DNA of 59,312 nt from Candidatus Falkowbacteria bacterium RIFOXYC2_FULL_36_12. Its GTDB lineage: Bacteria > Patescibacteriota > Patescibacteriia > UBA11705. The notes under the pieces were generated by a model that saw only the letters and a list, made by a program, of their open reading frames with translations, did not search any database and was not told where the DNA came from. The position numbers were made by a program, and so were the translations under genes. The DNA lies in contig MFGJ01000008.1 of NCBI GenBank assembly GCA_001778235.1, forward strand, positions 1 to 59,312, in the 5' to 3' direction. Positions 8,570-55,630 of the stretch are shown here, piece by piece. Numbering within the stretch: the stretch's first letter is position 1; each line of letters starts with the position of its first letter.

Positions 8570-11269
8570 TTATTTTACTGAAACTCTATTTTGTTCGTCC
8601 CTTAAATTCTTTTGTTTTTCTCGTTGTCGATCAATTTGGTTATTAAAATCTTGCTGTTCAGCTGGAGTAGCTGCACTATTTCGCTGACCTTCAAGTTTGG
8701 TAATTTTATCTTTAATTTGAGTTTCACGAGCCTTTAAGACTTTATCAGCATAAGCTTTGGCAATATCAGTGAATTCACCACCTTGGAGTCTCGGATTATT
8801 GGCAATAGCCTTGACTTCAATCATATGCTTTTGAACTTCAGGATCTGACAATATCGCAGGATCATCTTCGGGCACACCAAGTGAAGTCGCCGCCGCAGTT
8901 ACAGCTTCTTTGAATGAAGCTGCCAATTCTCCAACTATTTCCTTTGCTCTTCCAGCTTGACCAACCGCTACCATATCCCCAACCTGTCTATCAGTTATAT
9001 TCCTTGCCATTGCTCTTTTATTATCAGGCAATTGAGCTGAAATATCTATTTTTGCCAATTCTTCACCACGCAGACCACGAACATAATCCCCAATTGCTTG
9101 TTTTTTCTGATCAACCGTAGCTGGGATAACCACACCACTACCATCAACACCACGGTTGGCAAATGACGCCTCCATATCTTTGGTAATTTCAGCGTGTGAT
9201 CTTTGAAGTTGAGATACCTGATCTTTATCACCAGCAGTATTGGCAACTCCCATTCTTTTTTGTAAAACCTTTAATCCAGCATCTTTTGCCGTTGGCGAAG
9301 CATCAACCATTTTTACAATTGCCTCACCCATTTGTCGTGGTTTCAAAACTTTTGAAGCAATATCCATCACTCCTTGATCTGACAAAACACTCGGATCCAA
9401 ATTTTCCAATTTTAATTTTTTATCCTTAAAAGCTTTTTCCATGTCGCGTCTGCCAGCAGTAGTCGCAGTATCATATTTCAAATGACCAAATTTTGCCCCC
9501 ATCTTCTTATCCAGATTATCTAACACCCCTGACATTCCACTATATGCACTTCTAATTTGTTGAATTGATTTATGATCCTGTTCACCATCAAGCATGTCTC
9601 CTTCAGCCATTCTCTGCAGAGCAGCAGCTCTCTCTTCTTTTGAAGCACCCTGATTTCCCAATATACCCCGCAATATTTTTTCACCTTTTGGTCCTTCATA
9701 AGTCTTCATTTTTTTCATTTTCTCCTCAATAATCTGGTTTGTTGCTCCAGACTCTATTGCTTCCATTCTACTACCAGCTTTTCTCCAACCACCAACAGTT
9801 CCTTCAGTAAAGGTTGACAAGCCACCTTCGGCCGCACTCCTGATGAACTTGCTTTTTGCCGCCGCCGCCACTCCAGCGCCAATTCCGCCTCCAGTTGCCC
9901 TTGACTGACGAAAAGCTTCAGTCATTGAACTTACAGAAGCTCGGACAGCCCCAATCGGTGCTTTTAGAACTCCGCCAGCCATCCCCAAAGCCCCACCAAT
10001 TGGCCTGGCAATTGTTTTACCAATTAATTCCGAACCTTTCTGTACAACTTTTCTTTTTATAGCTGGAATTGCTTTTTTCTGAACATAGTCTCTTGAGTAA
10101 TTATAACCAGAATATTTTTTACCTTTGTCAGTCGCCCATTTTGCCGTTGCCGCCGCAAACCCAGAACCCAATTGTTTAGTCACTTCATAAGAAGCGTAAA
10201 GCATTGTTAATGAAATAACAAACGGTAAAAATCTTTCAATTGATTCAAGCGGATGTTGTGTTGCTCCACCAGATTCTTGCGCTACCAACCGTGATTCAGT
10301 TGTAATTTGATCTGTCAAAACATTTTCTTGAGTATTGGACATCACCATCAATGATAACCAAAGAAAAAAAGCCAACACCGGACCAATAATCAAATAATTA
10401 CTAAAGGACTTCCACCACATCGCAGTATATTTATCAAGAAATTTAAACCCAATAAATCGCAAAAACCCAAATGGTGATGTAACTACCAGAAGCCAAATCA
10501 TCACAATTCTAAGCGCCAAAACCGAAATTATCATAAAAGTTATAATTCCAGTTGCTCCAAGAAATATAATGGTAAAAACCATGTTAGCAAAAATTTCAAA
10601 CCAATCACTCTGAAACCCATCAGATAGACTTGCCGCTTCAGTCTTGAAAGAAAAATAATCCCTCATACCAATACCTTCAATCAAATTGGCACCAGCGGTA
10701 GCAGCATAACCATTAACAAAAGTCATCATCACTACTTGTGCAATATCAATCATCAAAGCGCAGATAAGTTTACTAAAATTAATCAATATGGCAATCACCA
10801 ACAATTTTACCAGAACTCCCTTGTCTCCGACTTTTGATTCTAGTCGTAATATCATGGCAAAAGCATAAACCAACAGTAATACCACGATCATCATGTTGCA
10901 TAAATCACGAATTATCACCCAGCCTTTATTGACCGCTACACTCCCAACAAAATTATCATAAGTGCTAAGAAGTATCAGCAAAACAAAAATCTGTTTTACG
11001 ATTAATGCCATGACATAAGCAATACCATAGGCAATATAAGCCAAAATCTTTGACACAAAGGCGAGCACACCTCCACCAACCGCAGCAATCACACTACCTT
11101 CTTCAGCCAAAACACTATTGCCCATCAATATTCCAACCAACAATAAAACCAAAAGACAACCAACAAAAAGTTTGGTGTTTCTCGGTCTGAATAAATTTAA
11201 AATTCGTGCAATACTAAAATGATAAAACTGTTTAATTTTAGCTGCAATCATGTATAATTTAAAACGCAT
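8570..11269 (-). CDS. Polytopic membrane protein, VirB6/TrbL-like, with a ~450-aa hydrophilic C-terminal extension
   Basis: Signal/TM at the N-terminus, then about 8-9 hydrophobic helices over the first ~370 aa, a G/A-rich linker (GGALGMAGGVLKAPIGA...ATGGGIGAGVAAAAKSK) and a charged tail. First gene of the block. Family call comes from topology and context. Confidence 0.45.
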   Translation of the reverse strand: MRFKLYMIAAKIKQFYHFSIARILNLFRPRNTKLFVGCLLVLLLVGILMGNSVLAEEGSVIAAVGGGVLAFVSKILAYIAYGIAYVMALIVKQIFVLLILLSTYDNFVGSVAVNKGWVIIRDLCNMMIVVLLLVYAFAMILRLESKVGDKGVLVKLLVIAILINFSKLICALMIDIAQVVMMTFVNGYAATAGANLIEGIGMRDYFSFKTEAASLSDGFQSDWFEIFANMVFTIIFLGATGIITFMIISVLALRIVMIWLLVVTSPFGFLRFIGFKFLDKYTAMWWKSFSNYLIIGPVLAFFLWLSLMVMSNTQENVLTDQITTESRLVAQESGGATQHPLESIERFLPFVISLTMLYASYEVTKQLGSGFAAATAKWATDKGKKYSGYNYSRDYVQKKAIPAIKRKVVQKGSELIGKTIARPIGGALGMAGGVLKAPIGAVRASVSSMTEAFRQSRATGGGIGAGVAAAAKSKFIRSAAEGGLSTFTEGTVGGWRKAGSRMEAIESGATNQIIEEKMKKMKTYEGPKGEKILRGILGNQGASKEERAAALQRMAEGDMLDGEQDHKSIQQIRSAYSGMSGVLDNLDKKMGAKFGHLKYDTATTAGRRDMEKAFKDKKLKLENLDPSVLSDQGVMDIASKVLKPRQMGEAIVKMVDASPTAKDAGLKVLQKRMGVANTAGDKDQVSQLQRSHAEITKDMEASFANRGVDGSGVVIPATVDQKKQAIGDYVRGLRGEELAKIDISAQLPDNKRAMARNITDRQVGDMVAVGQAGRAKEIVGELAASFKEAVTAAATSLGVPEDDPAILSDPEVQKHMIEVKAIANNPRLQGGEFTDIAKAYADKVLKARETQIKDKITKLEGQRNSAATPAEQQDFNNQIDRQREKQKNLRDEQNRVSVK

Positions 11270-11438: not shown

Positions 11439-11885
11439 TTGTCATCCTGAATCCTGTCTGCCGAAAGGCAGGTTGTTTCAGGATATAATTCTTCAACTTA
11501 CACTTGTCATCCTGAACTTGCTTGTCCATCGAAGTTTTAACGAAGATGGATTTCAGGATATAATTCTTCAACTTACACTTGTCATCCTGAACTTGTTTCA
11601 GGGTATGATTCTACGCCCCTCACTTGTCACCCTGAACTTGTTTCAGGATATAATTCTTCAACTTACACTTGTCATCCTGAACTTGCTTGTCCATCGAAGT
11701 TTTAACGAAGATGGATTTCAGGGTATGATTCTACGCCCCTCACTCGTCACCCTAAACCCTATACTCGTCACCCTAAACCCTACACTCGTCACCCTAAACC
11801 CAACACTCGTCATCCTGAACCCTACACTCGTCATCCTGAACTTGTTTCAGGATCTCCGGGTACTGTTTCAGGATCTCCGGGTACT
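11439..11885. repeat. Array of nested palindromic (REP/BIME-like) repeats
   Basis: Ten copies of the core gtca[tc]cct[ga]aac and seven of its complement tttcagg[ag]t form short hairpins. Two units carry an inserted hairpin (tccatcgaag...gaagatgga). Five 21-nt tandem units run from 11742 (four complete, 11742-11825; a fifth starting at 11826 runs into the next repeat). A 21-nt unit tgtttcaggatctccgggtac occurs twice. Confidence 0.9.
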
Positions 11886-11956
11886 ATTTTCATCATCTCT
11901 AGATATTCTTGCGAAGCCTTCAAACTTAATATACAACAACTTCAAAATTTACAAAC

Positions 11957-12036
11957 AAAAACACATCGACATCTATCATCACCCTGAAACTGGCAACCTA
12001 GAAGCTACCAATAATAACAAATGTCGATGTGTTTTT
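11957..12036 (-). terminator. 16-bp perfect inverted repeat with a 48-nt loop, downstream of the lipoprotein gene
   Basis: aaaaacacatcgacat (11957-11972) pairs with atgtcgatgtgttttt (12021-12036). On the minus strand the stem is followed by tttttgtttgt. The loop contains tcaccctgaaac, a fragment of the repeat-family core. Confidence 0.4.
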
Positions 12037-12523: not shown

Positions 12524-14389
12524 TTATGACGATTTTATTTTTGTTTTAAAGAATTGTACGAGATGTCCGAAGTTCAACCTGATAAAACCCATAATAACAT
12601 TCCTCTTCCAAATAACTACTCCTACAATCAGGAGTAAAAACAAAATCCCCGTCAATAAATACTTTTGCCAATTCTCATTTTCGCCAATAGTCGCAACCAT
12701 ACTTAGCGGGACAGCCAAACCTATCAATTCATCAGCCATTACTTCTTCAACAATCAAATCATTCTCACTTCTTGGTAAAATTTGAAATTCAGTTTCACTT
12801 TTGATCAAGACACCAACCACTGACAACGAATCTCCAACTTCATACATTTTACCAGCCAGACCAGTATTTGGTTTTAACACTACAAAAAACTCCCCAAATT
12901 CATCAGCCAAGGTTAATTTACTTCCTGACTTATCAACCAACTCTCCTGAAATTTTAACTAATTTTGCAACAAAATTTTCGTTAACATTTTCTAATTGTAG
13001 CTGTTCAGGGACAATTTCAGTTTCTTGGTCTAACAAAGAAAAATCATCAAGCAACACTCTTTTTTCGCCTTTGCTTTCAGACACCCGACCCTGAATTTTC
13101 ACCACTTGTCCCTCTGTCAAATCATCGGGCCAAAGAGCCTTTGAACTGTACAACTGTATGCCATCAAGATACATTATTTGCTTCCCGAAAATATTCGGGA
13201 GTACAATTATCTTTCCTTCAAATTCAATTTTTTTTCCTTTTTCAATATTCTTAATTTCAGCAATCTCAACTCGTGAATACTCATTAGTAATTGGTTCATC
13301 ACTTTCTTGTTTTTTATCTTCATCGCGCACCATTGCAACTTCAAAATCATCTTCAGTGTTTAAAATATTCTCTTCATCTGGCGTGATACTATTAGTCCAA
13401 ACCCATTCTTGCCCAAACAAACTAAAAGAATTATTTTCTTCTACCTCCTCATAACTACACTGATCAATTATTATTTCACCGTCCAATAATCTAACTTCAT
13501 CACTGGTATTATTCAAAGTCAACCTTGTAATGTCATTGGAAAAAATATGATACTCACCCGGACCGATAATAACATTGGAAATTAAATATGGCGCACTCCC
13601 GCCATCAATATCATCAAGATACAAACCTGACAAATCAAGCGCTTCTGAACCAAAATTAAACAGCTCAATCCACTCCTTAGCGACATCACTACCAGCCGGA
13701 TCAGGGAAGATTTCATTCAGTTTTATTGTCCAATTTATCTCCTCTATTTTTTCATCAATAATCTCCTGATTTTCCTCCAGCACTTCATCTTGATCCTCAA
13801 TTATTTCTTCAATTATATTTTCCATTCCAGGTGTCACTATTGTTGTCACCACAAAATCTTCAAAATCATTATTTCTTTCTTGGTTAATAGCTTTTCTAAC
13901 AACAGAATATGGATCAACAGCTGACAAAGCATTATCAGTCAAATCGCCATCATCAAAATCACCATAGCTAACTTTATCAATCAATATTTCTTCATACATT
14001 AAATTTATAATATCACCAGAATTATTAAGGCTGGAAACTTCAAACATTTTATAGTCAAATGAATCCAAATGACCAGTCAACATAAATTTCCGTCCAGAGC
14101 CTTCAGTTAGATAAAAATTTTCCAAATTCACACTTCTTTCAGTTGTATTATATACTTCCACCCATTCTGTTCCACCACTGACTGGATCAGATACAAACTC
14201 ACTGATTACAATCATACCTTCAAATATTTTATCCTCTCCACCAAGAGTTAAATTATCTAGATTATACTCACAAGCACAACTGCAACTACACTGAAAATCA
14301 TCACTATTTATAGACATATCTTGAGCCAAAACATTTTTTCCAAAAAATATTACACCCAAAATAATAATTGCTAATACTATTTTTTTCAT
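12524..14389 (-). CDS. Surface protein with two lamin-tail domains (LTD), two OB-fold-like modules and a C-terminal TM anchor
   Basis: LTD-like ISEFVSDPVSGGTEWVEVYNTTERSVNLENFYL and LNEIFPDPAGSDVAKEWIELFNFGSEALDLSGLYLDD. OB-like EIAEIKNIEKGKKIEFEGKIIVLP... and VAKLVKISGELVDKSGSKLTLADEFGEFFVVL. N-terminal signal; C-terminal TM LLTGILFLLLIVGVVIW. AGGAGG sits 6 nt before the ATG. Confidence 0.7.
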   Translation of the reverse strand: MKKIVLAIIILGVIFFGKNVLAQDMSINSDDFQCSCSCACEYNLDNLTLGGEDKIFEGMIVISEFVSDPVSGGTEWVEVYNTTERSVNLENFYLTEGSGRKFMLTGHLDSFDYKMFEVSSLNNSGDIINLMYEEILIDKVSYGDFDDGDLTDNALSAVDPYSVVRKAINQERNNDFEDFVVTTIVTPGMENIIEEIIEDQDEVLEENQEIIDEKIEEINWTIKLNEIFPDPAGSDVAKEWIELFNFGSEALDLSGLYLDDIDGGSAPYLISNVIIGPGEYHIFSNDITRLTLNNTSDEVRLLDGEIIIDQCSYEEVEENNSFSLFGQEWVWTNSITPDEENILNTEDDFEVAMVRDEDKKQESDEPITNEYSRVEIAEIKNIEKGKKIEFEGKIIVLPNIFGKQIMYLDGIQLYSSKALWPDDLTEGQVVKIQGRVSESKGEKRVLLDDFSLLDQETEIVPEQLQLENVNENFVAKLVKISGELVDKSGSKLTLADEFGEFFVVLKPNTGLAGKMYEVGDSLSVVGVLIKSETEFQILPRSENDLIVEEVMADELIGLAVPLSMVATIGENENWQKYLLTGILFLLLIVGVVIWKRNVIMGFIRLNFGHLVQFFKTKIKSS

Positions 14390-14403
14390 ACAACCCTCCT
14401 AGA

Positions 14404-14439
14404 GGGGCTTAGCAGCACAAAAGCTGTCCGCTAAGCCCC
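14404..14439 (-). terminator. GC-rich hairpin downstream of the RAYT-like gene
   Basis: ggggcttagc (14404-14413) pairs with gctaagcccc (14430-14439), with a 16-nt loop. No clear T-tract follows, so terminator function is uncertain. Confidence 0.35.
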
Positions 14440-14456
14440 ATTAATAATTAGATAAA

Positions 14457-15152
14457 CTAAGCTGCTAACTTTTCTAAAATTTCTTCTGACACATACAAAT
14501 ATGGATAATCTTGAGCTTTTTCAACAAATTGCCATCTATCCCTGACAGGTGCATCCAAAACATATTGAATGTTCTTCATCAATTTATCTTCATTATTAAG
14601 CAGGAACAATTTAGATTTTGCCTCCCAAACTTTATACCTTTTTACATTGTCATATTTCTTAGCTTCCTGCTTAAAATCCCAAAGAATTTTTCTTGGTTTT
14701 GATCGACTAACTTTCTCATTATTCTCAAATAAATCTAACAACTTATATTGATAATCATCACCTTTTGACTCTTCAACCAAATTTTTTATAATTTCCAGTG
14801 TTACATTTTTCTTTACTTCGCCATAAACCGAAGCCGGATCATCACTTTTTTCACTAAGCCGAAAAACCCAATAAAAATGATTTGGCATTATGACATAAGC
14901 CAAACTTTTAACATCATGTTTGAGCTCTGCCAATTTAAACCCATTTACCAATAAATCCATGTATTCTGGAGTTACAAATACATTCTTTTTATTAATAATG
15001 GCAGAGGCATACATGTATGTTCCTCCCACCTGACGCAAGGGGACATACCCCTGCTGGTCACTTGATTGACCCGCATTACTGACAGTTGTTTTGTCAGCGT
15101 TGTTGTAATTTGTTTGAGTTACAACGGTTTTTAATTGTTCTTTTGTAGACAT
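14457..15152 (-). CDS. IS200/IS605-type Y1 (HUH) transposase homolog, RAYT-like, with a degenerate HUH motif
   Basis: LAYVIMPNHFYWVF aligns with the MPNHvHll HUH motif (here H-F-Y). C-terminal KVWEAKSKLFLL...NIQYVLDAPVRDRW...DYPYLYV aligns with vWq.rf.d..i...YI..NPv.agl...dYpwSS, which carries the catalytic Tyr. Confidence 0.55.
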   Translation of the reverse strand: MSTKEQLKTVVTQTNYNNADKTTVSNAGQSSDQQGYVPLRQVGGTYMYASAIINKKNVFVTPEYMDLLVNGFKLAELKHDVKSLAYVIMPNHFYWVFRLSEKSDDPASVYGEVKKNVTLEIIKNLVEESKGDDYQYKLLDLFENNEKVSRSKPRKILWDFKQEAKKYDNVKRYKVWEAKSKLFLLNNEDKLMKNIQYVLDAPVRDRWQFVEKAQDYPYLYVSEEILEKLAA

Positions 15153-15361
15153 AGTTTTTAGGCTTTAATTTTTATTAAAGCAATTAATTTTTAAACCTAC
15201 CATGCAACTTAGTTCTAACTATATTATTTCAGCTATTTCTGGCCGAAACAACCCAAGGTTGACGACTCACCCGAACAAAAAAATCTCCATTTTGAAAGAA
15301 GAACTTTATCTCTAACAAAATTTTGTCTGTCTAGGATAACATCATTAAAATAATTTTCTTC

Positions 15362-15390
15362 TTGACAAATATTAAAATTAAGATTATTAT
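15362..15390 (+). promoter_or_regulatory. Near-consensus sigma70 promoter of the lipoprotein gene
   Basis: TTGACA (15362-15367), a 17-nt spacer, then TATTAT (15385-15390). The TTG that opens the track ORF is the -35 element itself. Confidence 0.6.
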
Positions 15391-15421
15391 GAAACTTCCT
15401 CAACCAGAAGGAGACACAACC

Positions 15422-18266: not shown

Positions 18267-21200
18267 CTATTTTACTAGAGCTGGACCATTTAGAGGTAGA
18301 CCAATACCTGCGTAATTAGCACCTGACAGGTCAGCAGAAGTTGTACTTCCGTCATTCCAACTCATGTCAGCAGCAGCATTATTGATCTTCAAACGGATTG
18401 AATCACCAGTAGTTTCGTAATCACCTAGATCACCTTCTACATAGTAAATCTTATATGAACCAGCAGCGATTGCTGAATCAGCATCCTCAAACAACATAGA
18501 CAATGTAGCGTTTGTTCCATCATCAGTTTCTTGTCCTGTTAGAGAAGCCAATAGAGTATCAGTACCATATTCATACAAACTCCATTCTTCGTTTGTGTTA
18601 GCATCATCATCAGCAGCTGTAGCAAGAACAGTAAATCTAATATTGTTATTAGCACCATTCAAGAAAGATACTTTGAAAGCTGAATCAGCTGTAACTCTAA
18701 ATCTCATAACTTCAGTCGCTGTAGTAGGAGCTAGAACGCTAGACACACCACTCTCTAGAGAGAATGTTGGTTTTGTCTTTACAAACTTATGAGCGTTTCC
18801 GTCATAGTTTGCAGCTGCAGAACCAATTGCGAATGTATTTGAAGTTTCACCCATGGCTGAAATATCAGTTGACGCTGTATGAGTCACGATATTAGCAACA
18901 CGGAATGTTAGATCAGAACCATCAGTTGAGAATGTAGAATTGTCAGCAGGAGTACCATCAACACGAAGCTCAACATATACTGAATCATTCTTTGGAACAG
19001 TAAATAGACCGTCCGCATCGTAGAACAAAGCTGTATTTGCAGTTGAGTTAATCAAACTACCTACAGTAGCACCAGCTTGAACACCATCAACATAAAGTTT
19101 CAAGTTTCTTACATTACCTGGTAAATCATCTGTACCAGCTTCCTTCATGTTAATTCTCTTAACTACCAATGATTCAACATTGCTTGCTGAAAATTCCCAA
19201 GCAGCGACTGTTTGGTTAGTCTTACCAGCAACAATATAAGTTGAAGTTGGATTTGTTGGAGCAGAAGCTGCAGCAACAGTTAGAGTACCAGCTGTAGCAA
19301 CAGTGATTTGCTGACCAACAGCACCTGTAGAGTCAGTAACAGTCGCATTTGTAGAAACACCACGACCAGTTACAGAACTAATCTTAATCTCATCACCATC
19401 ACTTGTCCATGCAGCATCAGCATTTGAAGTAGCATCAGCATATAGATCAAATGTCTTTGATAGACCAGCACCAATAGATACTGGACTTGATGAGAAATTC
19501 ATTGTAACAGTTCCACCATTTGTTGTTGTTGGATTTGCAGAAGTAGCAATCTCTGTTCCATCCACACGAAGTGAAAGGTTTACAAATGCATTACCAATAC
19601 CGACATCACCATCATCAACAAGAACAAGTGAAGTTACTTCAGAACCTTCAGCTACGCCAGAAGTAATTGCCCATGATCCGACCAATACTTGCTGTGCTCC
19701 TTGTACCACAGTCATGTTTGATACAGAAGAGTTTAGTGTAGTAGTTAGAGAAGCTTCAGCAACAATTAATTCACTTGCAGAAACTGATGTTGAGTTAGCA
19801 GTTGTACCAGTTGACATTCTGAATACATTTGCATTACCTGTTTCTAAGACCAATTGGATAGAATCACTAGCAGCCATAACAGTACCGTCACCCTGAACGA
19901 TATCACCATAGATTTCAACTACATATGTTTGACCCTCTGGAATTATGAAAGTATTTCCAAATGAGAATGTAGTATCATCATCAGTAGCAGCATCGTCATC
20001 AGTAGCATTACCATCTGCAGATGCGTCAGAATCAAGATCCTTTGTAGTTGAAAGCTGTGTTCCATTTACAAGAATCTTACCATTGTTTACATCTTCAGTA
20101 TCCATAGCTCCACCAGCAGTTGTTCGGACAACTAAGTTTGAAACTTTAATGTCCTCACCAATAGCTTTGAAATTCCACTTACCAAGTAATTGGTTAGTTT
20201 GTCCAAGAGCTACATTACCACTTGGTGAATCAGTTGCTAGAGTCACTTGAAGTGAACCAGCACTGATTGTTGTTGTATTTGTAGCAGTAATTAGAGTGAA
20301 AGTATCAGCTTGGTTAATCTTTACAAATCTTTCATAATTTGTATCCCAAGCAGTTACATCATATGGATTTTGTACTTCAAAGTAGAAAGTTCGGTTTGTA
20401 CCAGTTACAACATCACCACGAAGGTACAAAGTCTTAGTTTGTCCAGCAGTAATATTATAATCTAGATTACTAAATGTAACAGTCTTATCAGCTGTCAAAC
20501 CATCAGCTTCACCAAGTACTGTCAATCCATCATACAAATACATATTTTCAAATGTATCTGATTCAAGAGTACCAATAGTTGTGAAAACCATTTCATCAAC
20601 TCGTACTTTTTGATCTGCAGCAGCTAGAGTAAATCTCCATAGCTCTTGGTCAGCCAATCCAGCTTCAATTGTTGTTCCTGGATCAGCAGCGTGAGCAATA
20701 GTCAATTTACCAAAGTCACTTACAGCAGCAGTCTCAAATCTTTGACTTGCCATTGGGAAACTACCACCAACACTTCCAGCTACCAAAGTAACATCAGAAG
20801 ATGCCTCTAAAGTAAAGTCAAAACTCTTATTTGCAGCTGTACCATTTGCAAGGTCAAGCATCAAAGTCAAGTTTCGTGTTGAGCCACTTGAAACAACGAA
20901 ATTTGTTCCAAATGTATAGTAGTTGCTTGAGTATGAAGGAGAATCTGAAATCAATGTATCACCATCATAAAGATATAGAGTATTGATATCACTATTTGAA
21001 GAGATTCCTCCTCGTTTCAAACGGAAAGAGTCAACTTCAACAGCACCTCCATTAGCAGTAAATTTCAATTTCATTACAGGTGATAAGTATTCAGTACCAT
21101 CACCAGATGTTGAATCAGCAATAACAGTTGCAGCAGCAACAGTTGTCATAGAAACAGATAAATTTCCGCTTCCAACAACAGCTCCAGCGCCACCACCTTG

Positions 21201-32180: not shown

Positions 32181-32233
32181 ATTTGTCACCCCTGAACTAA
32201 ATTCAGGGCAGGCTCTGAATTTATTTCAGGGTA
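32181..32233. repeat. Solo member of the gtcaccctgaac/ttcaggg palindromic repeat family
   Basis: tttgtcacccctgaactaaattcagggcaggctctgaatttatttcagggtata has the same core and the same 3' tail (tttcagggtat) as units in the 11.4-11.9 kb array. Confidence 0.8.
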
Positions 32234-49538: not shown

Positions 49539-49707
49539 ACACGGTAAGCATCGGGGCTTGCCTGCCGTAATCTTGATGAAGGCAGGTCTGGGGGCTTTCT
49601 TGCCGTGTTTAAAACACATAATAATTTTCATAAGTAGCAATTAAAGCCCCCAATGGTTTTTGCTTCCTTTTTGCCTGCCTACCATGCCTGCCAGCAGGCA
49701 GGTAGGG
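49539..49707. repeat. Pair of GC-rich ctgcc/ggcag-type hairpins in a 495-bp non-coding gap
   Basis: acacggtaag (49539-49548) pairs with cttgccgtgt (49599-49608), enclosing cctgcc (49561-49566)/ggcagg (49581-49586). A second hairpin is cctgcc-agca-ggcagg (49687-49702). Confidence 0.7.
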
Positions 49708-55565: not shown

Positions 55566-55630
55566 AAAAAAAAGTCCGCATCCTTGTCTTTTAATATAAT
55601 TATTTGAGGACAAGGATGCGGACTTTTTAT
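55566..55630. terminator. Bidirectional terminator with an unusually long perfect stem
   Basis: agtccgcatccttgtc (55573-55588) pairs with gacaaggatgcggact (55609-55624): 16 bp with a 20-nt loop. A-run before, T-run after. Confidence 0.7.

Follow-up and report, generated by a model that had tools for sequence, protein, structure and literature searches.

An intergenic mosaic of CGTC-tagged hairpins, probably akin to CGTC-2 repeats, in a Candidatus Falkowbacteria genome

The stretch of 59,312 nucleotides (positions 1 to 59,312) of contig MFGJ01000008.1 of Candidatus Falkowbacteria bacterium RIFOXYC2_FULL_36_12 (assembly GCA_001778235.1), referred to as the window, contains an array of palindromic repeats upstream of an operon resembling a type IV secretion system (T4SS). 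The array is probably an intergenic mosaic cluster of repetitive extragenic palindromic (REP) hairpins that carry a CGTC tag. Its closest group is CGTC-2, in the superfamily of the dRS3/NTS elements of Neisseria and of RPE-4 and RPE-6 of Rickettsia. It appears to be a new example, in a Patescibacteria genome, of a known selfish or housekeeping repeat of the Ssn-related class and not a new system, and its architecture (head-to-tail, nested and partly decayed) is unusual. An initial annotation of this DNA had called the array similar to REPs and bacterial interspersed mosaic elements (BIMEs). Its description as a non-coding, REP-like cluster was retained, but the tag is (C/T)GTC and not GTAG, and the orientation of the units does not alternate as that of REPs in BIMEs does.

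Organization of the array

Parsed by hand, the array spans positions 11441-11886 and consists of six complete hairpins, four 21-nt units made of a left arm only and one orphan right arm. The hairpin stem is formed by ATCCTGAA and TTCAGGAT, and the consensus of the array hairpin is (C/T)GTCAYCCTGAAC-TTG-TTTCAGGRT. The motif GTCAYCCTRAAC occurs nine times within 11506-11841, compared with 0.02 copies expected by chance, and a tenth left arm, at 11441, is the one-base variant GTCATCCTGAAT. Ten copies of gtca[tc]cct[ga]aac had been counted in the initial annotation, nine of which match as given. The seven complementary arms counted there were all recovered (TTTCAGGRT, within 11476-11874). The hairpins had been described as back-to-back; instead, all 10 tags lie on the plus strand, head-to-tail, and the tag before the left arm is TGTC in five cases and CGTC in the other five. 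Outside the array, the left arm has a single match in the window, at 19887, which lacks a right arm and was rejected as a family copy, being a half-site explained by chance. The parts of the array are the following:

11441-11484, plus strand: hairpin unit 1, with tag tGTCA, left arm ATCCTGAA(T) and right arm TTTCAGGAT (pattern match and DNA fold)
11453-11472: nested hairpin I1 in the loop of unit 1, CCTGTCTGCCGAAAGGCAGG, pairing as CTGCC-GAAA-GGCAG; the nested unit is also present in a metagenome contig, L121
11485-11505, 11560-11580 and 11650-11670, plus strand: copies of linker A, ATAATTCTTCAACTTACACTT (repeat search)
11506-11559, plus strand: hairpin unit 2, with insert I2, CTTGTCCATCGAAGTTTTAACGAAGATGGA, at 11521-11550; without I2 it is the canonical GTCATCCTGAACTTGTTTCAGGAT
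11581-11604, plus strand: hairpin unit 3, with loop CTTGT; a chimera GTCAT...GGGT with a mismatch in the second stem pair
11605-11625 and 11725-11745, plus strand: copies of linker B, ATGATTCTACGCCCCTCACTT (repeat search)
11626-11649, plus strand: hairpin unit 4, with a short loop; the reciprocal chimera GTCAC...GGAT
11671-11724, plus strand: hairpin unit 5, GTCAT...GGGT, with I2 in the loop at 11686-11715; within the 165-nt duplication
11746-11829, plus strand: four 21-nt arm-only units, cGTCAYCCTRAAC CCWAYACTC, comprising tag, left arm and 9-nt linker, without right arm
11830-11853, plus strand: hairpin unit 6, cGTCATCCTGAACTTGTTTCAGGATC, with matched pairs, the 3' C and zero mismatches to the canonical hairpin
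11854-11886, plus strand: tail CTCCGGGTACTG, orphan right arm TTTCAGGAT at 11866-11874, then CTCCGGGTACTA; duplicated 21-mer

Tandem Repeats Finder detected a 45-nt period (11551-11685), a 21-nt period with 5.0 copies (11737-11841) and a duplicated 21-mer (11843-11889), recovering the tandem run and the duplication reported in the initial annotation. A repeat search added a 120-nt direct repeat with a spacing of 165 nt (11473-11592 similar to 11638-11757). All linkers are repeated (A three times, B twice, the 9-nt linker C four times and D twice), leaving zero unique spacers. Among the window's open reading frames (ORFs) of at least 120 amino acids (aa), neither cas genes nor any transposase domain was found besides that of a gene resembling REP-associated tyrosine transposases (RAYTs). 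A CRISPR array, which the initial annotation had also dismissed, was rejected on account of the repeated linkers and the missing cas genes. A protein-coding repeat was rejected as well: the only long ORF, of 211 aa on the plus strand, lies opposite the strand of all genes, yields a repeat peptide (VILNLFQD...) and has no family match, as befits the artefact it had been taken for.

Extra palindromes occupy the loops of three hairpins in total (11441-11484, 11506-11559 and 11671-11724), one more than initially noticed, I1 being present once and the 30-nt I2 twice. Excision of I2, which adjoins a CTTG duplication, restores the canonical hairpin exactly. The loop is the 5-nt CTTGT in units 3, 4 and 6, and measures 25-35 nt, with nested hairpins, in the three others. 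Three of the six complete hairpins are T/G or C/A chimeras in which the second stem pair is mismatched. The right arm is followed by A in five of seven cases and by C in two, the 3' C being retained only in the units at 11830-11853 and 11866-11886, and unit 6 is the sole fully canonical copy in the array. Matched partner arms sit across the linkers (GGAT-linker A-GTCAT and GGGT-linker B-GTCAC), which argues that the repeating unit is a permuted module joining in the loops. As single-stranded DNA (ssDNA), the array folds into hairpins better than shuffled sequence (z = -4.46).

Relationship to CGTC-tagged repeats and Ssn nucleases

The 22-mer GTCAYCCTGAACTTGTTTCAGG was scanned against 185,579 species genomes, which gave at least 120 loci, with 142 copies listed. 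The identical 22-mer is thus found in more than 120 loci of at least 11 phyla, where we estimate that chance would account for about 0.1-0.5. Among the matches listed, the hosts are Sphingomonadales and other Pseudomonadota, Bacteroidota, Treponema, Patescibacteria (nine loci), Melainabacteria/Gastranaerophilales, Elusimicrobiota, Nitrospirota, Dadabacteria, Caldisericota, Bacillota and Campylobacterota, so this class of CGTC hairpin, almost unchanged, reaches at least ten phyla besides Patescibacteria. In its basic unit, (C/T)GTC is followed by A(T/C)CCTGAA as the first strand of an 8-bp stem, by CTTGT as the 5-nt loop, by TTCAGG(A/G)T as the return strand and by a C. As ssDNA, this unit folds into a hairpin. 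Of the 142 copies listed, 132 have C or T in front of GTCA (90 with C, 42 with T) and 134 have C directly behind the palindrome. At the second stem pair, covariation is perfect, with 75 copies T-A, 64 C-G and 3 mismatched. In other genomes, the hairpin is often paired head-to-head with a sister whose stem is compensated (such as GCTGAA or TCCGAA), and at one locus (L064) it is nested in the loop of another hairpin. Copies of the identical hairpin in Sphingomonadales end in CCA. The tagged strand showed no bias in GC skew across the 120 loci listed (p = 0.3), and a general preference for the leading or lagging strand was dropped for this reason. A literature search on the letters of the hairpin or on the peptide LKQVQHD/LKQVQDD returned no paper.

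The best fit for the array unit, judged from its letters, would be a CGTC-tagged REP closest to CGTC-2, with the 8-bp stem and 5-nt loop described for that group. In the survey by Di Nocera, De Gregorio and Rocco (2013, BMC Genomics 14:522, PMC3733652), CGTC REPs are defined by a CGTC/TGTC (or CCTC) tag, a stem of 8-9 bp starting with AT and a loop of 4-5 nt. They are reported there mainly from Alphaproteobacteria and also from other phyla, with no dedicated transposase found. According to the same survey, CGTC-1 is the dRS3 of Neisseria, CGTC-1 and CGTC-4 are RPE-6 and RPE-4 of Rickettsia, and CGTC-2 occurs in Novosphingobium. The family examined here shares with CGTC-2, as described there, the CGTC/TGTC tag and, in its canonical copies, the 8-bp stem beginning with A-T and then T-A/C-G and the 5-nt loop. 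Like those repeats, it is intergenic, apparently multi-copy, distributed across phyla and sometimes placed in frame within genes (L027), and the identical hairpin is abundant in Sphingomonadales, where CGTC-2 was described. In L027, another Patescibacteria genome, the identical hairpin at 2390-2425 lies in frame in a membrane-protein gene, as an RPE-like insertion with the peptide ...WILKQVQDDG....

A nuclease partner is known for the related elements of Neisseria. SsnA, a GIY-YIG nuclease of 100 aa, binds the extended dRS3 (NTS, CGTCATTCCCGCG...CGGGAATCYRG) in its ssDNA form, on one strand only, and cuts it a few bases upstream (Chenal et al. 2025, Nat Commun 16:2388, PMC11893778). In NTS, the 5' CGTCA tag gives the orientation, the C after the palindrome is a key binding base in N. 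meningitidis, and both loop identity and loop extensions are immaterial; ssn genes, of the single-domain GIY-YIG type cd10448, are typically bracketed by their own hairpins (PMC11893778). We located GIY-YIG genes by sequence signature and tblastn, and genes with this domain (PF01541) were found at 3 of the 120 loci listed (tblastn and Pfam; E 1e-14 to 1e-16), in a Flavobacteriaceae (L111), a metagenome-assembled genome of Pseudomonadota (L049) and Alteriqipengyuania (L098). In each of them, the gene directly abuts the identical hairpin and a sister hairpin stands on its other side, with the tags pointing outward.

The likeness to the NTS/SRM repeats and their Ssn enzymes (PMC11893778) covers the orienting 5' CGTCA tag, the C after the palindrome in 134 of the 142 copies listed elsewhere, the bracketing of small single-domain GIY-YIG genes by the identical hairpin in three genomes, and the clustering of repeats beside genes of surface machinery. 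The differences are that the CCTGAA stem fails the SRM string and that most array units lack the 3' C. The family appears to have as its partner an Ssn-type ssDNA nuclease rather than a RAYT, and this enzyme perhaps spreads or maintains it. The published string misses the array hairpin because the T in CCTGAA fails position V. To judge from these bracketed genes, the CCTGAA-stem class would be Ssn-associated and yet outside the published SRM pattern, so that counts of Ssn-related repeats are probably underestimates.

In a distant relative (L129, 6350-6649 and 6650-6900), hairpins of the GTCATTGCGAGG type stand on both sides of an Ssn-like GIY-YIG gene, which lies just upstream of that relative's RAYT-like gene.

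Several observations weigh against the assignment of the array to CGTC-tagged, Ssn-related hairpins. As described in PMC3733652, CGTC REPs are mostly head-to-head dimers with a CCA tail, the head-to-tail arrangement being negligible, whereas the array units are all head-to-tail and their tails are ATA, ATG or CTC. No GIY-YIG gene was detected in the 59-kb window by signature, tblastn or a domain scan of ORFs of at least 120 aa, and the SRM string HGTCWYN(0-2)YYVSBRHN(0-5)WNVSBRGN(0-2)RNCYNB gave 0 matches on either strand of the window. The sequencing runs for the locus are kept only as Logan contigs, and the order of the units is read from assemblies. To our knowledge, no experiment shows Ssn moving or copying hairpins, and the mechanism of growth proposed below is one that we infer. 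As to orientation, the head-to-head preference is a habit of the CGTC family and no strict criterion. Two further differences from the published CGTC REPs concern setting: clusters, reported there from Neisseria and Wolbachia, are rare, whereas the array is a cluster with nested loop inserts and arm-only tandems, and Patescibacteria fall outside the five phyla listed in that survey (PMC3733652).

Genomic position and neighbouring genes

Three features on the minus strand define the surroundings of the array:

11957-12036, minus strand: probable terminator of a 143-aa gene, a 16-bp perfect inverted repeat and T-run after the stop codon
11306-11314, minus strand: extended -10 box TGGTATAAT; the ATG of an 899-aa VirB6-like gene follows after about 40 nt
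14457-15152, minus strand: RAYT-fold gene with motif H-F-Y; context, outside the hairpin element

REPs between co-oriented genes affect termination and mRNA decay (PMC3733652), and the array lies between two co-oriented genes. Placed between the T4SS-like operon and the 143-aa gene, it could accordingly act in RNA as a terminator, an insulator or an mRNA-stabilizing block, or be a structured non-coding RNA, a role that we consider unlikely. In its favour, the minus-strand RNA folds into hairpins (-128 kcal/mol, z = -2.6) and the inner hairpin has a GAAA loop, but the RNA fold has a weaker z-score than the DNA fold (-4.46), and the upstream gene has its own 16-bp hairpin and T-run at 11957-12036. 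The box TGGTATAAT is conserved in a relative, L126 (within 10490-10510), and from its letters and position it is likely the promoter of the T4SS-like operon. Since this box (11314-11306) is downstream of the array, the array would lie upstream of the operon's likely promoter, between terminator and promoter. Scans of Rfam at gathering and e-value thresholds gave no match, only noise from the long terminator hairpin, and the orthologous gap of the relative lacks the array, whose units are moreover decayed chimeras. The loop of the terminator hairpin holds the repeat fragment TCACCCTGAAAC. An exact look-up of the 143-aa neighbour protein found no match. Three metatranscriptome runs of the same study contained nothing from this organism and are uninformative on transcription of the array. 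Most probably, the array is selfish or neutral DNA that the genome tolerates and through which this spot becomes a hotspot of recombination and length variation.

The RAYT-like gene, placed correctly by the initial annotation at 2.6 kb from the array, matches the NCBIfam model NF047646 (REP-associated tyrosine transposase) with E 1.2e-20 and 73.9 bits, the cut-off being 80, and the profile of its family matches E. coli TnpA-REP (PDB 4ER8). In 15 relatives, the columns of the HUH histidines hold H/Y/F and Y/L/F/C/R, and the column equivalent to the catalytic Tyr115 holds Y/F/M/S/Q. No tagged hairpin was found at the flanks of the gene (14380-14470 and 15140-15400), and a relative of the protein was found at 0 of the 120 hairpin loci listed (tblastn, of limited sensitivity). 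RAYT-like homologues share contigs with VirB6-like homologues, and the gene order in two relatives is giant, TPR, ~530-aa, RAYT-like, LTD or large, small, VirB6-like. The RAYT-like gene also keeps its position beside T4SS-like genes in relatives without the array. Judging from its residues and synteny, it is a fixed, catalytically degenerate member of this neighbourhood and not part of a REPtron, in which inverted copies of the REP flank the RAYT gene.

The RAYT-fold family, with 56 Patescibacteria relatives, has a fixed place beside the T4SS-like cluster (for example at 7001-7645 in L126 and at 7001-7717 in L128 and L129). The protein may be a binder of ssDNA or hairpins recruited by a T4SS without a relaxase, and a degenerate RAYT-fold protein fixed beside such a T4SS-like cluster may be worth more than the array.

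Two less conventional scenarios, taken together, seem to us quite improbable. One has the dead RAYT-fold protein bind hairpin ssDNA and use such arrays. In the other, the array would record an active single-strand DNA process aimed at the loops: once an Ssn-type nuclease or another hairpin enzyme had opened loops or flanks, these would take up small palindromes such as I2 as well as permuted modules composed of right arm, linker and left arm; if this were true, Ssn/hairpin pairs would be a true mobile system driven by a GIY-YIG enzyme.

The pairing of REPs with RAYTs is established, and the initial annotation had invoked it for this array. On this view, the array would be a BIME-like product of cut-and-paste events at the hairpins, carried out by the Y1-transposase homologue nearby. 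The proximity of the gene and its matches to the transposase model and to TnpA-REP speak for this idea, and the array resembles the REP/BIME and RAYT pairs of E. coli in its small extragenic palindromes, its repeated linkers and the HUH-fold gene nearby. We nevertheless hold it to be very unlikely. The gene scores under the NCBIfam cut-off, its HUH motif is H-F-Y here and Y/F-F-L/F/C/R in relatives, and the Tyr115 equivalent is not conserved. Unlike its E. coli counterpart, it is unflanked by repeats and syntenic with T4SS-like genes, also where the array is missing, and no relative was found at the hairpin loci listed. The tag is CGTC/TGTC rather than GTAG, and the units have a single orientation. 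The survey of CGTC REPs likewise finds no RAYT flanked by them (PMC3733652). The link to RAYTs and BIMEs is therefore attractive but wrong, and the array was refiled under CGTC-tagged REPs and Ssn-related hairpins.

Assembly, dispersal and growth of the array

Short-read assembly of a multi-copy repeat can invent or collapse the order and number of units, and Logan graphs do fragment the array: the long contigs that contain the flanks end at 11467 and resume at 11839, and the array itself is broken into unitigs of 41-75 nt. In run X1, however, the depth of the three-copy module (linker A) was 55, compared with 16.3 for the flank (3.4x); the two-copy module reached 38 (2.3x) and unique junctions 14-22 (0.9-1.3x). 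The junction specific to the long form (11534-11580) had 1.3x single-copy depth, and a 75-nt Logan unitig covers 11586-11660, the region of unit 4, with zero differences.

Four further assemblies carry the identical 899-aa neighbour gene (L122, L123, L124 and L125). L124 reproduces the array letter for letter, and L125, produced with MEGAHIT, is identical up to its end inside the 21-nt tandem; both agree with the window base for base over at least 547 nt. The comparison of array length proposed in the initial annotation therefore gave equal lengths for L124 and, as far as the contig goes, for L125, but in L122 (SPAdes) exactly 165 nt are missing, which is one period of the large duplication. 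This shortening is either a real allele or a collapse, between which k-mers cannot discriminate because the junction makes no new word. L123 exits the array after unit 5 into a smpB-infC-rpmI-rplT locus that has its own repeat mosaic, a join that is either a chimeric scaffold or a rearrangement through repeats. An assembly artefact would account for the shorter L122, the jump in L123 and the end of L125 within the array, but it is highly improbable given the base-for-base agreement of L124 and L125, one of them from a different assembler, and unitig depths that fit three, two and one module copies. Because assemblies agree and depths match copy numbers, the array is real and not a collapse artefact, the possibility raised in the initial annotation, and its exact length may vary. 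Arrays of this kind break or mis-join metagenome assemblies (L122, L123 and L125), which matters for curating genomes of the candidate phyla radiation.

The core motif is not confined to the array; its restriction to this spot, which the initial annotation had named as grounds for refutation, is thus contradicted. Two further tagged hairpins are present in the window:

32185-32232, plus strand: family copy, GTCACCCCTGAA-CTAAA-TTCAGGG with a second arm pair; the module is also in L121
32391-32414, plus strand: tagged hairpin of like build and different stem, tGTCACTCCGGA-TTTAG-TCCGGAGTCTC

When metagenomes were scanned with a linker-plus-arms pattern, a single contig, L121, was recovered. At a different locus, it has a 460-bp array in which modules of the window are reordered, among them the hairpin with I1, linker A and the arm-only units of 21 nt. 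The depth of its flanks was 15.7-17, compared with 15.5-19 for the window flanks (two runs), and these equal depths place L121 in the same population as the window. L123 shows a third junction of array modules, and array k-mers are 5-57x deeper than the flanks. In this respect, the array is similar to the NIMEs of Neisseria (RS units bounded by dRS3), which are also intergenic mosaics with few repeated linkers between hairpins of the CGTC-1/2 type, and whose modules are shuffled between loci, as here between the window and L121. It differs from them in its linkers of 9-21 nt (50-150 bp in NIMEs), its single orientation, its nested hairpins and its 21-nt arm-only tandems.

Directly to the left of the array, the segment 11368-11430 (CAATCACTTAC...CCCCACTAA...AGCATCG) resembles modules of L123, its k-mer depth is raised and it has loose ends; the mosaic may continue leftward for about 70 nt more as a different repeat family.

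In the related Falkowbacteria genome L126, the orthologous gap measures 346 nt and contains another, 104-nt tandem repeat (10213-10420) rich in inverted repeats.

Since the gap of L126 holds a different repeat, the array is not conserved and would be a lineage-specific acquisition, and repeats seem to have landed more than once in the gap in front of the VirB6-like gene. HUH-fold proteins bind ssDNA hairpins, and the array might on this account be an oriT-like site bound as ssDNA by the degenerate RAYT-fold protein for a relaxase-less T4SS-like machine, given that gene, array and operon are adjacent and that the gene is syntenic with the cluster across Patescibacteria, but we find this scarcely credible, as the array is not conserved here in relatives, the same modules lie at the unrelated loci of L121 and L123, and the hairpin is pan-bacterial and elsewhere tied to Ssn genes.

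As a mosaic of CGTC-tagged hairpins, the array would have grown in place, starting from one or two canonical hairpins. Hairpin loops would have received other small palindromes and permuted modules by insertion or recombination, after which replication slippage or unequal recombination would have acted between arms with periods of 165, 45 and 21 nt, the outcome being chimeric, mismatched hairpins and arm-only units. The chimeras, the missing 3' C, the arm-only tandems and the 165-nt difference between assemblies point to loop-centred insertion or recombination together with slippage, and the chimeras and arm-only tandems do not appear to fit a repeated arrival of canonical elements. In other genomes, 139 of the 142 copies listed are matched and 134 are followed by C, in contrast to the array, with 3 of 6 mismatched and 5 of 7 followed by A. 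L129 and L128 offer a parallel: nested and arm-only tandem arrays adjoin the Ssn-like gene of L129, and the 50-nt arm-only tandem after it has five copies there and two in L128 (6510-6900).

Elsewhere in the window, GC-rich hairpins with long stems were noticed at 14405-14439, 49586-49652 and 55574-55623 (12-bp stem), with arms such as GGGGCTTAGC...GCTAAGCCCC and GGGGGCTTT...AAAGCCCCC; they seem to be members of other hairpin families that have nothing to do with the CGTC tag.

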